From Isurus oxyrinchus (taxonomy: Eukaryota), in NCBI GenBank assembly GCA_026770705.1, contig JANJGN010000003.1, positions 151,652,001 through 151,716,000 of the forward strand: a stretch of DNA of 64,000 nucleotides, given 5' to 3'. Below, in pieces: positions 12,859 through 50,336 of the stretch. The translations under genes and the position numbers were made by a program. Below the pieces are notes generated by a model. It saw only the letters and a program-made list of their open reading frames with translations, searched no databases and had not been told where the DNA came from. Within the stretch, counting starts at the first letter, position 1; each line of letters starts with the position of its first letter.

Positions 12859-15800
12859 CGGCCTTGGACTTAGCCATTTCTAAAAGGCCTATAGTGCTCT
12901 TTCAAATACCAGGGTGTTTTGCCCAGGTCATTACCTTTGTGGAGGGGGAAACTAAGCAAAATGCGTGGATGCTATGCAGTCCTGAGTGTTTTAATAACCC
13001 ACTCGGTGACCGTCTTTAAATGTTGGTAAATAAAATGCTCACGGCTCCAAGTAAAAAATCAATAGGTTTGTAACGTTTTGTTTGATAAGTCGCATAAGGC
13101 AATTGAAGTGGAGACGTATTGAACAATATTTAACGGCTTCCGTGATTAGACAATTTGCTTTTGGAATTTAAAATTAATTTAACTTGCAAAAAAGTTACAC
13201 AAAGGGCTGCCTTGTTTTACCAATACATCTGCACTTCATTTCAAATTCTTCTCACTGGTGCCTCCATCCGTGTGCTCAGAGTTTCCAAACTTAAACAGGC
13301 TGCTGTTCCTTTTTTTAAAAAAACATCGAATCCTAAAAGAATTGTATTTTAATGAGGAACATAGTTTTAATGTGCAATTTTCTGTTTTAAAACTGTGACA
13401 ACTTTTTAAAAAATCATCAATCTAGCAACCCTAATCAATTATTTTACCGCTTAGGATTACGTTTTAATGCCTTACAAACTATCCTAGTAACAAGTGTCAA
13501 ATTAATAAAACGAAATTATTCGTTTGGACTAGGCTTCCCATCTTTCTCACGAGAAAAAGAAGTCAGATCATTTGCAATGGATAGATTTTCCCTCTTCATT
13601 CTTATCTCCGGTACTACAAATGTCTTTCATCTAAATCCACGACCATTCTACTCGTCCGTCTATTTCTCCATCATCTTCTCTCTCTCTCCCTATCTATTCG
13701 TACATACACAGATGCTAAAGTCGGTATTTTAAAGCAATATTGTACATTTCAAGTGGAGTGCGATTTTTGGAAAATGCTGTATGGACTCAGAATAAAGATG
13801 GCTTCTTCATCTATTGAATGATACATTTAATGCCGTCTTAGATATTAAAGAATTTGACTTTTGTTAACTTTTAGTATATGATGTGTTTTAAGAGCTCGTA
13901 ACAAACAGCATTTTCGTCCATCTTTGCATATATTTTATTTATTGTTCTATTATCTGTGTACTAATTATTATGTTTTCGAAGACACATGTTCGCCACTTCT
14001 ACAAAGTGAAGGAACAATGCTAGTGCCCTACTGAATAGATATATAAGAGATTTGTATCTTGTTGCTCGCAATGTGTCTAATAGAGAATAAAGGGATATAA
14101 TATTTAAACTGTATAGGCTCATATGGTTTTATACTTTTTTGTAGAATCCTTAAGTGGATTCGACGTTTATCTTGATTGCAGCTAAACGGAAAAGGTGCAG
14201 CAAAATGATTACGTTTGGCATCAACTGTTACATCTGGGTTGCAAAAATCTGTGAAGAGTTTAATGCCACAAACAAGAGCTGTCCTTGTTATTGCATGCTA
14301 AAATCTCATAGACCATGCTGCATAGACTTCAGTCGTTCAGTTTATACATCAGGGGACGCGGCCAATGTTAAACTGTAACGCTGCATTTGCATTAGCAATG
14401 AAGTTATCACCATTGTCATGCTGACGGATTTTTATATTATTGTTGAAGTGTATTTTAGCAGTCAGGAAAAGGAGAGGGAAAGGCGCAATCAGAGTTATTA
14501 CCATGGATAAGTGGAGGACCTGAAGTAAATGTTGTTTCTGTATTTTAAACAAGGAACTTTCTTCTCAAATGCTAACCCCTCTATCGTTGAGTCTCAGAGT
14601 ATTCTTGTGACATTTCGACGGAACTGAGAGGAATACAAAATCGCCCCTACGTACTGTATTTCAAATTAGATGATTTAAAATAGATGTCAATTCAAACATA
14701 AGCTCTGCTGAGATGTTCCTTAATTCTAAATTAGTACCAATGCGTCTATATTGTTAAAACGATTCAGAATGTGGGGGGATGGCTGTGAATTTAAGTATAA
14801 ATGATGTCGATCTAGTCCTTGAGTCAGTGTACACTGTTGGGTGATGTACTTCGACAGGCGAGCTGCTGCTGTATTCTAATCTCTCTTTTTAAAAAAAAAT
14901 CGTCATTCGGCGCGAAAAAAGGCAAACCAAAATAAAACAATTCGATTTGTTTTTGTGGGAAAAGCCTCTTAATTTTTTTGTACAGTTGTTGAAAGTTTAC
15001 CTGCTGCATATACAACAGATAGAAAAATGACCGTGGTCGATTTTTCAAGATGAAATACAACGTGTCTCGATCATGAAAAGAATATTTTTTTCTTTCATTT
15101 CGTCAGTAATTGAGGTCGTTCAGTCGCTCGGGTTCACCTGGAGTCCATAGTATGATACACGAGTAACTCAAAGCTATTTTATCTTTTGTGCTGATAGTCA
15201 AGATCGCGCTATAACATTGACATCAAACTCTGTCTGAGCAGATGATTACAAGTCGTGCAAAACGTAAACTTTTGACCCTCAACTTTTTGACCTACAGTTG
15301 TACCGCCCTACCAACCACGGTACAGGGAGCCCTTTTTCAAAGCATTGCTGAGGACTGAAATAATATCCCCTTTCGTTCACTATTTTCATGATGTACTGCT
15401 AATTTCAGGTCTGGGAATGCTGAAGGCACTGTCCCCATCCCCCTCCTTGTCCACCTCCACCCCATTCCCGTCTCCCCCATAAGTGAAACCTTTCTTTAAT
15501 CTCAAAAATGGTATGAACCTCAACTGTCTGCAGGCTGTTTATTCAAGTGCTCTTTTATTTAGTTGGATATGCCAAAGTGGGTAAGTTTTTACTGCATCGG
15601 CCAGCCGATCTAATTATAGATAATATAAAAAAAAAACAAACGCATTAAGCTTTTGGGTCTATTTTAGTTTTTCAGTCTTTTTCTGTTGCACTGATAGAAC
15701 AATGGATGCGTGAGCTCCCAGTCCATGCTAATAGAAAATGACTGTGAACTTGGTCTAAAGCGAGCTCTGCTGGTGAGTCGCAGAGTGTGCAGATGCATTT

Positions 15801-35324: not shown

Positions 35325-35718
35325 CTGCATTCCTCATCCAGGGGTAAATCCGGAAATTGCTCTCTGCTTGAGGGTGCACGTTAGGCTGATCCAATTTTTC
35401 GCAACCCTGTTTGCTCAGATCGCTGCAAAGAACTGGAATGTTCTGGTCTAAGGCAGAGCAGCGCAGGTTGTAGGAATCTGAGTTTAGATTATAACCTGTG
35501 TTGTACATGGAAGGGCCGTGATAGATTGCACTGTTAACATTGTACAGCCCGGCCATCGGGGCTGGGAAGGCGCTGGCGCCCGCTCCATAGCTGGATCTTT
35601 GTGAGTTGGTAGCAAAAGCGCAAGAAGTTGCTTCTGTAAAGCCATTCGCATTCTGGAAAACGGATGTCCCCGCCGTATATTTGGGAAAAAGAGCATTCAC
35701 ATAATACGACGAACTCAT
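35325..35718 (-). CDS. hoxa7: Homeobox protein Hox-A7, exon 1
   Basis: MSSSYYVNALFPKYTAGTSVFQNA (HOXA7-like) from the ATG at 35718; NFRIYPWMR; donor G|GTATGG. Confidence 0.96.
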
Positions 35719-35749: not shown

Positions 35750-35900
35750 CTTCAGTGTCGGTTTTACGAGATAGCGTGATATATGGCAGCATTACACCCC
35801 CGATTTACACCAAACACCCATTTTCCTTCGGCCCGACTTATTTCTATTCACGTGACCTGACCATGTGATCCTGTCACCCAATAGCATCCCACATCACAGG
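35750..35900 (-). promoter_or_regulatory. Hoxa7 proximal promoter
   Basis: TTTTACGA, GATTTAC, TCACGTGAC, CATGTG and CCAAT within 180 bp of the ATG. Confidence 0.55.
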
Positions 35901-36664
35901 TGGTAAATAGCATGTTATCCGACTATTTTCAAAAATATATTGTGCAAAAGTCATAGATAATCTTTTGCAGTATTATTAACATAGATAGATTGTGTAACTT
36001 TAAAAGCGCAGTATCTTCTCACCATTGCTTTGCAAGCTATTGTCCCACATGCATATGAAGGTTTTAGCAACGCAGGTATGTATCCAGCATTTTTGAAAAT
36101 AGGATGATGAATTTGGAAGTGGAATGAAACGTTTGATTGGACATAAACGAAACGTCTTGCTTTCATTTAGAAAAGAACATATTTCATGAATAGTTACATG
36201 GCCACACTGGACTAATATTAAGCATCAGTTTACATTTTGGGAGACAACGTTAAACGTTTCATTTAAAATAAATGAGCTCTCCCCCATTGTCTCTCCCATT
36301 GTCTGTACCGTTGTTTGCTGTCTTGCAGTGGAATGAAACCACTGTACAACACCAGAGAAACTAGAGCCCTGTTGAATTAATGCTCAGTGCACACGTAAAC
36401 TCTAGATTAGAAAATAATCTGTGCGTTTTTACTGAGGACTGCAGATGCAAGATACACACTGCAGCAGCGCCGCGCAGGGTAGCTGTGAAGCGTCTGTTGT
36501 CAACTCCCGTTTTTTCTTTTGCTAACATTCAAACGTATTTCGATATTGATTTACTGAAATGCACAATTTCACTCTGGAGATTACCACGCTTCCTCAGACG
36601 GGTCTCAGTGCAACAACTATGCGATGGAAAACTTTTGGAGTTGCTAGGTAATCTGATTAAAACC

Positions 36665-36850
36665 CCGCAGGGGATTTACCCCGGTATCATTTCCTCCTTC
36701 TGTTTTACAACTTTTTCTCTCTCTCTGCCGGTCCTCTCGTTAGATCACAGAACTTGCCTCCGAAGCTGTTGTCCACAATTTCCTTGCACATTGTCCAGTT
36801 GCTCCGCTTAGGTTTTTGGTTCCTTCCCAGCGGAAGCGTTGCTTCTAAGT
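36665..36850 (-). pseudogene. Candidate degenerate Hoxa8 homeobox (exon 2) remnant
   Basis: Minus 36734-36687 reads GGA CCG GCA GAG AGA GAG AAA AAG TTG TAA AAC AGA AGG AGG AAA TGA (GPAEREKKL*NRRRK*). This aligns to Hox8 [18 protein letters not shown] with a 2-codon gap. It is on the correct strand and in the slot between a7 and a9. Confidence 0.5.
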
Positions 36851-39800
36851 GCAACATTAATAGGCATATTTGTCGGTGTTAAACGGAGGAATGCAATCCC
36901 TCTACTTACAAGAGAGCCACAGTCTCACCAACCATGCACCTGGTACGTCGAAAGTAAAGGGTTATTGCAATAAAACATGACTGTGTGTTTCCGCCCGGGA
37001 TCATTCCGGGATTATTTTCTCTAATATTAAGAAATGTTATTTTCTTTTGATCTCTGGAGTCTTTCCTGTCATGTCATAATCCTTGTGCTAAGCAGGCAGA
37101 CTTAACACCAGCGGGGATGGTTATCAGGAGGTTATTACACTACACTCGTCCGTGGCTCGTTAAAGAACAGTCCATGTTTGATACAAAACTGCCAAACTGC
37201 CCGCAATATCCATGTTTCCCGCCAGTGCCTTAGACAAACGATGCGCTATATGTGAATGTTCCGGGAAGCGCTTAAGTTAAATTCCAAACTTTTCCAATAT
37301 CAAGTTATATCCGGAAAGCCGAGGTATCAAAGATTTTGCTAGGCCGACCAGACATAAAAATGTTAAGAGCCTAAATAAAGTTCAAATCATTACAATCAAC
37401 AGCCAGTGGCTGTGTCCAGGGGATGGAACGAGTATATACATAGTAAATATATCTGAACATGTTTTTAAAACAGATTTTCCAGGTCTGAGGATTCCTCGCT
37501 AAAGATGGGTTACCGCTCCAGGCTGCTCCTTGATTGCAAAGGAATGAAAACTTGAGCAATAAAAATCGAAGGAAAGGAAGAGTGGATGAAAATACAACAT
37601 AATTGAACAGGATACCAGTAATGTCAGCATTTCATTCATATATTCCCAATTCAATAATAACAAAAGAACGCTGCTAACTGAAGTCAAATATCTGTTAAAA
37701 ATACCAAAGTTGGGCCAAACATGTAAAATCTCATCCCGCAATAATTTGAAATACATGCCTGGGCAAATGGATTTTTCCCAACTTTTATTTTGCCCTTTAT
37801 TTCCCTATTTCTCCGGACCCTGAGGTTCCTCGCACAGTTAAACCGGCGAACATTCCGCCTGCACGGCCCCACTTACATCTGTTTAGAAGTAAAATAGATA
37901 TTCTAACCTTCCATTGAACATTTTAATTACTCGTGTGTTCCATTATCACATTAAATACAACTTTACCGACAAAGCACCTACAGGAACGGGCAAGGTTTAT
38001 TTAGTAACAATCCCAACTGCTTACTTCATTCTATTAGATGGATGTAAGGGTGTATTGGCCAGGACAGAAGTGTTACTAACTCGAGCTGGAGAAAGTGCAA
38101 AAACAAAGTGAACGGAACACATTTTCGCATTAATTAGTAAATTACTATGGATGCAACTTCAAATGTAACTGCATATTTTTGGAACAAAATACAATTGAAT
38201 CATATGGCTGGACAGCACATTACGCTGTCTTAATAAACCGAGCCGTTTCAAATTATGCCTGCTCGTCCCAAGTATAGTACCAAAATGAAGGAAATTAATC
38301 TGGTAAATATGCAATTACAAAAAAATCAATAGATAGATAGATAAGATGATAGAAACAAGATACACTCAGTTGCCTCGGCGTTATGTTTTGCAGAAATTTA
38401 AATCATAATGGCAGTTTCTTTAAGTTCGGAAATCTGAGTCTCTCTTGTATTTCCGGATACGGCTATATGTCTCATGGTGTTTTTTTTTTCTATGTATCTC
38501 GAGCTGATTGTTATAATCTTATTTTAAACTGCTTACAAACACATGTGGTCCATTAAGATTATGTTGCACGGTAACAGATAATCCTGATTTGCAACCGGCT
38601 CACTCACATTTCAATAGACAAAATTGCATAGTGATCACCGAGCATCTATTTGAATTGCTATTACATAATAATGTACATCATTCTTGTCTGCATATTTTGA
38701 AATGCATATATCTCGATTTCGTTACACGTCATTTGCTATGATTTCGAATCTATTATCTGGCTGTTAAAGTCCCCCATTCCTTCTGCGCAGTTTATTAAAG
38801 GAAATGGAAGTGTGTGCCTGCTCGAGTTAAATTCCAGTTTAGTACTGGGCTGTGGCAGGAAATATACAAATATTATATATGTATAGCTTTATTGAAAGTA
38901 AAATTGTATACATTGCACTGAAGTTTGATTAAAAATACTAATGAATCCGAGTGTCATTACTTTGTACCAAATATCACGAAATGTATTGGTATCATTCACA
39001 TGATGGCAAGTGTGTGAAGACCCAAGAATTGTTCACTCCAATTCACCAGGTTTTAATAACGTGAAGAATCTACATGATTTAGTTTCAAAAGGTATAAACT
39101 ATTATGCCGCTTAGAAAAAAACTGCTGCGCGATTTCGACTTCCTGATGTATGTGAAAGCTCAGGTGTCGTTATTGAAGTAAACCAGTCGGCAGATAAACA
39201 AGATGAACATCCTTTGGGTTCGCCCGACGTTTCCCATTGAGAAGATCTGTACAGTTCAGTGTATACGCCGTAACTTAAATCAATGAGAAAATATAATGTG
39301 GGCATGGTTAAAAAAACCAAACAAGTGTCCTCCTAACTGACTTTCTTTGGTGCCATTATAGCATTTAGCCAAGTTATTAACGATTTATTGACATTTCTGA
39401 AAGTTACTATTAAGTACTTTACATCAAACGGGCATCTCACAACGTCATTAATAACCCCACTTACTCCGTCGATGGATGTAGCTTTATAAATTTCAACAAT
39501 ATGAAGCCTAGTCATAAAATATTCAGAAAATTTAACTATATTAAGTTACTATTTTTCGACCCCAAGGACATACCACATTTAACATTTAATTCTTACTGGT
39601 CTCCAACGAGAATTTCAGGATAAACAAGAGCGAGCGCATATAGATTTAGGTATGTGATTGCACACATGTATGCCTGTATATATGTATGTTTGGCTGGATG
39701 TGTGTTCATGAATGTGCGTACGCGTTCGTGTACTTCGTTGTATGTGTATATTAACGCTGATATATGTACGAATGAACATGTCATTTCTATTTCACATACT

Positions 39801-40141
39801 CAACTTCTAATCGCTATCCCCTGTTGCACGCAGCTGAGCAGACTGAGGAACGAAGTGGGAGATAATCAATTTAAATCGTGTTATTGTACATTAAAAATAA
39901 AACACTGAAGTACAAATGGATTTCTAAACCCGTGTCAAGCAGAATTAATCTGTCCGCAAATGAGTTGATGGATTCAAAATGAATATACTCCATCGACCTC
40001 AGTCCATTTTTACAAGTGTCATTTGTGGTAGATGTTTTCATCCTATTTACAACCTACTGTATAAATAAATCCCAGTTTATAGCAGTTATTGCACTCTTTG
40101 GCAGCTTGGCGGCACTCTTTTTAAATTCTTCTGTGGATTAA

Positions 40142-40176
40142 CACTGCCATCTCCTGGCCATGAAAGAAATCTGCAA
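40142..40176 (-). promoter_or_regulatory. Candidate CTCF site between Hoxa7 and Hoxa9
   Basis: Minus strand TTGCAGATTTCTTTCATGGCCAGGAGATGGCAGTG: strong core plus an upstream TGCAG motif. Confidence 0.7.
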
Positions 40177-40574
40177 CCAAGAAATTGCTATCAGAAATGC
40201 ACAGAAACCTGTTTTTAAAACTGTCAAGAAGCTAATACCTATGTGTCCAATTGACAATGATTTTTTTTCTTATAACTATCAAGTTATTTGCAAATCGCGT
40301 TAAACCACGTTTCAAAATACCTAAAGATCTGTTATCTTTCCACTAGACGCAATAAATTAGTAAAGAGAAATTTGAGGGGCCCACGTTAAAGACGAGACTA
40401 ATAAAGGTCGTTATTTCCGCAGACCCTTTTGTCTAGGCAGCCAGACAAAACAAATGGATCGCCTTCTCTGGAAAAATACTGATTGTAGCTGGACAGTTGT
40501 AAACTCATTAAAACCCGAATTCCAGACGGCTTGCCAGACCCTTCATTTTATTGCGAGTCTCCCTGTTTAGTCTT

Positions 40575-43127: not shown

Positions 43128-43369
43128 TCACCGGTCGTCTTTGGGTCGTTCCTTGTTGATTTTTTTCATCTTCATCCTCCTGTTCTGAAACCAGATTTTA
43201 ACTTGCCGTTCGGTAAGGTTAAGGACCCTGGCGACCTCATATCTGCGGTCTCTTGTGAGATACATGTTAAACAAGAATTCCTTTTCCAGCTCCAGGGTCT
43301 GATGTTTGGTGTAAGGGCAGCGTTTTTTTCTGGTAGATCTTGCATGCAGCCAATTGGCGGATGGGTTAT
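43128..43369 (-). CDS. hoxa9: Hox-A9 exon 2 (homeodomain); spliced protein 260 aa
   Basis: Acceptor TTCCAG|AT; [48 protein letters not shown] (STRKK and TKHQ are HOXA9-type); 541+242 nt = 261 codons. Confidence 0.96.
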
Positions 43370-50252: not shown

Positions 50253-50336
50253 AACTGCAGTAATTCAGGCAGTTTCGTGTTGTAGAGATAGACTTGAGCC
50301 CCAACAACATGAAACTACCTAAATCACACATCAGTT
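50253..50336 (-). ncRNA. mir196: miR-196 precursor hairpin (syntenic position of mir-196b)
   Basis: Minus strand 50321-50300 reads TAGGTAGTTTCATGTTGTTGGG, the mature miR-196 sequence. The complementary 3p arm CTACAACACGAAACTGCCTGA follows, with a basal stem AACTG...CAGTT. It lies between Hox9 and Hox10. Confidence 0.97.

Follow-up and report, generated by a model that had tools for sequence, protein, structure and literature searches.

A decayed exon on the minus strand of the window (the whole stretch of DNA that was analysed, 64,000 nucleotides long) is probably what remains of Hoxa8. No jawed vertebrate is known to keep Hoxa8 or HoxB11, and the loss of both genes has so far been inferred from absence. 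The reading of the segment as a unitary Hoxa8 pseudogene is given a probability of about 0.8. The segment has disabling lesions and there is no working ortholog in the cluster, which is what distinguishes a unitary pseudogene. The original prediction of a Hoxa8 relic at this place is supported by the slot, the strand, the spacing from a conserved Hox7 element and the best match to group 8.

The window contains six intact Hox genes, of groups 10, 9, 7, 6, 5 and 4, all on the minus strand. When neighbouring stretches are added, the order becomes 1-7, 9, 10, 11 and 13, intact and with no Hox8. Group 8 is the sole empty slot in the window. From this inventory we infer that the cluster is the elasmobranch HoxA. 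Two other full clusters are present in the genome, HoxB (1-10, 13) and HoxD (1-5, 8-14), and the Hoxb8 and Hoxd8 genes of the same genome served as the references for the relic. A lone intact Hox9 homeobox (G000:C3247:17936-18103, minus strand) also occurs in a repeat-rich 48-kb contig; it is probably HoxC9, left over from the HoxC cluster, most of which elasmobranchs have lost.

The position of the relic can be measured from a conserved Hox7 promoter/5'UTR element found in HoxA, HoxB and HoxD, which is probably the H8/7-6 four-cluster sequence. The distance from the W48 equivalent to this element is 941 nt at the relic, compared with 1772 nt for Hoxb8 and 1266 nt for Hoxd8. HoxD has kept the element (on G000:C14, some 1.27 kb 3' of codon W48 in Hoxd8) despite the missing Hoxd7, with GTG where the start codon would stand.

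Table 1. Coordinates of the relic, its possible companions, the positional anchors and the relics in other slots (window positions unless a contig is named).
Feature	Position	Strand	Basis or role
Decayed Hox8-like exon 2	36675..36847	minus	Viterbi alignment to Hoxb8/Hoxd8 profile
Best-preserved core: turn and helix 3 (G39-W56)	36687..36734	minus	direct sequence; second-half model 17.8 bits
Possible exon-1-end remnant: FPWM hexapeptide region reads IPWTQPL, donor GT reads CT	37401..37424	minus	weak match
11-mer GTTTTATTGCA, possible intron remnant	36966..36976	minus	weak, spotted post hoc
Hoxa7 exon 1	35325..35718	minus	intact downstream neighbour
Hoxa9 homeobox	43155..43334	minus	intact upstream neighbour
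Hox7 promoter/5'UTR element, conserved	35757..35770	minus	positional anchor; in HoxA, HoxB, HoxD
HoxA14 pseudogene exon	G000:C3:151740118-151739970	minus	beyond Hoxa13; positive control
Decayed HoxB11-like homeobox	G000:C23:5878230-5878035	minus	between Hoxb13 and Hoxb10

The relic aligns to exon 2 of Hoxb8 and Hoxd8 end to end and in collinear order, from a TAG acceptor at 36847-36845 through codon 60 at 36675. The linker after the acceptor is 11 nt long, the same as in Hoxd8. In unweighted alignments, 89 of 174 aligned bases are identical to Hoxb8 and 91 of 159 to Hoxd8 (51-57%). The lesions consist of five deletions (4, 7, 1, 4 and 6 nt), a single inserted nucleotide, and the stop codons TAA at Q50 and TGA at W56. 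With six indels, two stops and no open WFQNRRMKW frame, the relic is without the capacity to make a homeodomain protein.

The best-preserved part is the turn and helix 3. Its codons were given correctly in the original prediction (GGA CCG GCA GAG AGA GAG AAA AAG TTG TAA AAC AGA AGG AGG AAA TGA), as was the translation GPAEREKKL*NRRRK*. The 6-nt gap claimed for it is a net gap and corresponds to 16 codons against 18 in the G39-W56 segment of Hoxb8 and Hoxd8. The proposed acceptor is likewise in place, with TTAG from 36848 and its AG at 36846-36845, and the spacing from AG to Gly, put at about 110 nt, is 110 nt, compared with 122 nt in Hoxb8 and 125 nt in Hoxd8. The two upstream motifs that had been pointed out, the QTYSR-like AAACCTAAGCGG starting at 36815 and the KEF-like AAGGAAATT starting at 36785, are present but do not rise above chance on their own. 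Together with the acceptor, this 5' half scores no better than chance would allow: 30% of the control positions are as high (p 0.30). Since they are at chance level, these motifs are consistent with the Hoxa8 reading and are not evidence for Hoxa8.

Scoring against other paralog groups had been proposed as a check, and its outcome favours group 8. In all nine settings, no other place between A9 and A7 scores as high for group 8 as the relic does, and at the relic site group 8 outscores the other 12 of the 13 groups every time. The lead over the next group, which is usually group 9, amounts to 0.4-4.8 bits and is below 2 bits in seven of the nine settings. Because this margin is small, position carries much of the assignment. 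A rival reading is a real homeobox remnant of another kind, derived from Hoxa7 or Hoxa9 by local duplication and now fragmentary, and not the ancestral Hoxa8. Group 9 comes within 0.7-2.9 bits of group 8 with whole-homeobox models, and groups 5 and 7 within about 2 bits with local models. At the DNA level, however, full-length alignment places Hoxb8 and Hoxd8 first and second of 34 homeoboxes, Hoxa7 being 11th and Hoxa9 14th. The relic also retains Gly39, a Gly that the original prediction had named as distinguishing group 8 from groups 5-7. Among the 34 tabulated homeoboxes this residue is found only in Hoxb8 and Hoxd8, although Hoxd14 also has Gly. A duplicate of Hoxa7 or Hoxa9 is considered very improbable.

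The more serious alternative is a chance likeness, in which a purine-rich intergenic stretch resembles the purine-rich codons of helix 3 and no Hox gene was ever involved. The core is in fact 71% purine, and most of the relic's signal is carried by the helix-3 half. This half, which was picked after looking, is the top match in 863 kb of cluster DNA outside the homeoboxes. With a local model, in which no part is chosen beforehand, the score of the relic is reached in the A9-A7 slot by 9 of 250 codon-shuffled Hox8 models. The relic also does better than shuffled sequence, a comparison that had been suggested for it, since only 4-10 of 300 local-composition shuffles reach its local score. When the same model is run over 872 kb, two unexplained peaks stand above the relic after an Evx-type exon and peaks on the tails of genuine homeoboxes have been set aside. 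In local alignment, Hoxd8 and Hoxb8 rank first and second of 30 homeoboxes, and 8 and 9 of 500 shuffles, respectively, score as high.

Further support comes from full-length unweighted alignment, in which the relic is beaten by 0 of 6452 control windows for Hoxb8, 7 of 6452 for Hoxd8 and 1 of 6452 for the sum. A coding past would also leave more matches at the first two codon positions than at the third. Against Hoxd8 the numbers are 36/53 and 11/27, with 2 and 5 of 100 top chance hits as skewed; against Hoxb8 the skew is absent, 21 and 47 of 100 chance hits being as skewed. The skew thus supports a coding past against Hoxd8 and not against Hoxb8. The control counts in both the full-length and the codon-position comparisons are too low, perhaps by 1.6-fold, because the control windows were stepped and the relic segment was framed by hand.

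Several searches fail to single out the relic. The nhmmer search proposed in the original prediction, run with Hoxb8/Hoxd8 exon profiles, gives the relic E=39, which is not significant, and blastn of the A9-A7 interval against HoxB and HoxD misses it. By whole-homeobox forward score it ranks 18th in 884 kb, and 42-66 of 300 shuffles reach its score. Extending the model by the conserved C-terminal NKDKFP tail makes the score of the relic fall, and with the acceptor and the tail together it lies outside the top 25 in 586 kb. In end-to-end alignments it is anywhere from second to below sixth in the window, depending on the settings.

Equal or better matches also occur where no gene is missing. 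On the minus strand at 14618-14530 (the match at 14555), between Hoxa5 and Hoxa4, there is a homeobox-like match of 14.9 bits, compared with 14.7 for the relic, and with an nhmmer E of 0.051; no paralog is missing there, and the match is treated as chance. Another match scoring higher than the relic is found in the D11-D10 interval.

Taken on all tests together, the similarity of the relic to Hox8 is modestly above chance, with a slot-level p of about 0.02-0.04. Against a chance likeness stands the fact that slot, strand, spacing and group all coincide, and this explanation is considered unlikely. A repeat origin gained no support: a search of the relic's own genome, in which common words were skipped, gave only the relic site and no second copy.

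Traces of the rest of the gene are faint. The spot reading IPWTQPL is the best match in the slot to a model of the exon-1 end, at 10.2 bits, and 5.4% of control positions are as high (p 0.054). The intron that it implies would be about 550 nt long. A scan for exon 1 in 12 segments gave scattered matches of 7-14 bits that form no collinear chain, and the remainder of exon 1, with its MSSYF start, was not found. The 11-mer GTTTTATTGCA is also present in the Hoxb8 intron, at 153 nt from the acceptor compared with 132 nt at the relic, and occurs 5 times in the 904 kb of Hox-cluster sequence.

Over the whole intron, the 3'UTR and the promoter, similarity is not above that of real cluster controls. 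An apparent 3' match to Hoxd8, reached by 0 of 200 shuffles, disappeared after the homology of the Hox7 promoter had been trimmed. The near-perfect miR-196 site that Hoxb8 and Hoxd8 have in the 3'UTR is absent at the relic, where 80% of controls score as high (p 0.80); its loss is expected of a long-dead gene. The 5' half, the exon-1 end and the miR-196 site have a combined p of 0.19, which like the nhmmer result is compatible with chance. The mir-196 precursor itself is located at 50257-50330 on the minus strand, between Hoxa10 and Hoxa9, and is the only Rfam match found. Several miR-196 seed matches lie downstream of Hoxa7 and Hoxa9.

The other empty slots of the Hox clusters provide controls. 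A positive control is the HoxA14 pseudogene, whose exon is 63% identical to Hoxd14 over 153 nt (blastn E=1e-5; about 53 bits). In the HoxB cluster a decayed HoxB11-like homeobox was found for which group 11 is the best of 13 groups, with 19.5 bits compared with 12.6 for group 10. Its first half ranks first in 867 kb, and its summed A11 and D11 score is 39, compared with a maximum of 21 among 6452 control windows; blastn of the A11 and D11 flanks gives no flank support. As judged from these scores, the HoxB11-like relic is stronger than the Hoxa8 relic.

No homeobox relic was found in the A12, D6 and D7 slots, where the best scores are 8-9 bits and not 14.7, which also argues against a chance likeness at the Hoxa8 relic. 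The B12 slot is at chance level for its 70 kb. In a blind scan with 13 groups over 857 kb, two of the 13 peaks of at least 14.7 bits (A8 and B11) fall in an empty slot of the matching group and on the expected strand. About 0.2 would be expected, as computed from slot lengths, and the remaining 11 peaks are taken as chance background. The Hoxa8 reading is supported by the fact that this test also picks up other dead Hox genes, each in the slot where it belongs (HoxA14 and the HoxB11-like relic).

A probable history of the gene starts with redundancy. With Hoxb8, Hoxc8 and Hoxd8 at hand, the A copy would have been dispensable; it probably lost its function in the stem of the jawed vertebrates, not long after the genome duplications of vertebrates, and has decayed in place ever since. 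Slow substitution and a compact, repeat-poor Hox cluster would have kept exon 2 just readable, with exon 1, the intron and the 3'UTR worn down to chance level.

The fitted decay of the relic is 0.5-0.7 substitutions per site, compared with 0.3 for the HoxA14 relic, and the divergence of paralogs is about 0.73 per lineage at 456 four-fold sites. Such decay fits a death of Hoxa8 shortly after duplication, before the jawed vertebrates radiated, though a borderline chance match would fit 0.5-0.7 as well. The Hoxa8 relic is probably older than the HoxA14 pseudogene of this genome.

Selection could also have preserved part of the relic as a regulatory element of Hoxa7 or Hoxa9 and so have kept it readable, which would be compatible with its being a Hoxa8 pseudogene. 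The Hoxa7 start is about 1 kb downstream of the relic, and a palindromic TTATTGCAATAA motif is adjacent to it. Data from organism B, a related species (2 studies, 4 runs, no more than 3 samples), cover 35800-40300 with about 1.3% difference, and none of the 40 of 58 differences listed, apparently the first 40 by position, falls in 36622-36848. The lesions would accordingly be common to both species. Over 184 nt here, 0 differences among those listed compare with 2.4 expected (P=0.09), and two longer gaps of this kind, of 322 and 237 nt, occur nearby. The absence of change is compatible with constraint and with none; a regulatory role is considered improbable. A metagenome scan with Hoxa7 exon 1 found no distant chondrichthyan relatives.

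If genuine, the Hoxa8 relic is rare direct evidence that a gene was lost after the genome doublings early in vertebrate history. Since a Hox8 gene is expected at the start of each duplicated cluster, the biology is unsurprising, and what is new is the direct sequence evidence. A readable remnant points to decay in place and not deletion. Its age can be set against that of younger relics such as HoxA14, and it shows for how long an exon can still be recognised after the death of its gene in the slowest-evolving vertebrate genomes. With many shark, ray and chimaera genomes aligned, it would allow a test of when genes were lost after whole-genome duplication.

A broader proposal is that elasmobranch Hox clusters hold legible, unreported fossils (Hoxa8 and HoxB11-like) of genes lost in every living jawed vertebrate; this is put forward tentatively, at somewhat less than even odds. 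If it is true, the two relics would rank with the oldest vertebrate pseudogenes that can still be read, and sequence would show directly in what order, and when, Hox genes were lost once the second genome duplication had taken place. The Hoxa8 case is statistically thin and comes from one genome, and it is made more useful by the stronger HoxB11-like relic.

It is quite possible that the Hoxa8 relic has been noticed in sharks before. The horn-shark HoxA cluster may once have been drawn with a Hox8 pseudogene. No published Hoxa8 or HoxB11 pseudogene was found in a search whose scope left outside the key horn-shark and elephant-shark cluster papers, figures and supplements. The portions of text available from PMC3509897, PMC5054437, PMC1845163, PMC4686793 and PMC9456325 contain no description of either. 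In the available portion of the elephant shark paper, only two Hox14 pseudogenes are listed as Hox pseudogenes (PMC3707753), and in that of a comparison of skate and horn-shark HoxA neither "pseudo" nor "Hoxa8" occurs (PMC2746220).

The closest known parallels are the HoxA14 and HoxB14 pseudogenes of cartilaginous fishes, described for the elephant shark in the available parts of two papers (PMC3707753, PMC3509897). Like the Hoxa8 relic, these are unitary and decay in their own slots of a chondrichthyan cluster. Unlike them, the Hoxa8 relic belongs to group 8, lies in mid-cluster and is far more decayed (about 10-18 bits, where the HoxA14 exon has about 53). Coelacanth and lungfish still possess HoxA14, according to the part of PMC3509897 that was available. 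Another in-slot remnant of a lost central HoxA gene is the bichir HoxA7 pseudogene (PMC1845163). That loss is specific to one lineage of ray-finned fish, whereas no jawed vertebrate is known to keep Hoxa8.

Within its own genome, the relic resembles Hoxb8 and Hoxd8 in having its best DNA match to them over exon 2, in the layout of acceptor and linker, in Gly39 and in its place upstream of the Hox7 element. Unlike them, it is without an open frame, the NKDKFP tail and the miR-196 site, and its exon 1 is limited to the weak hexapeptide-like spot.

Short contigs from three runs guessed to be RNA cover 35800-36157 and 37619-38292; they do not lie over the relic and are uninformative on its expression. 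The DNA run X9 gave no coverage of the relic, and no RNA data set was listed as containing it. Those at 37619-38292, upstream of the relic (two runs guessed to be RNA, from organisms A and C), may represent an intergenic transcript or DNA carry-over.

The A9-A7 interval is a chromatin boundary in mammals. The only CTCF-consensus-like site in the window is found in this interval at 40157-40144 on the minus strand. Two blocks of non-coding sequence at 40873-40422, also on the minus strand, have conserved counterparts in the paralogous interval between HoxB9 and HoxB8 (E 9e-14 and 4e-5).
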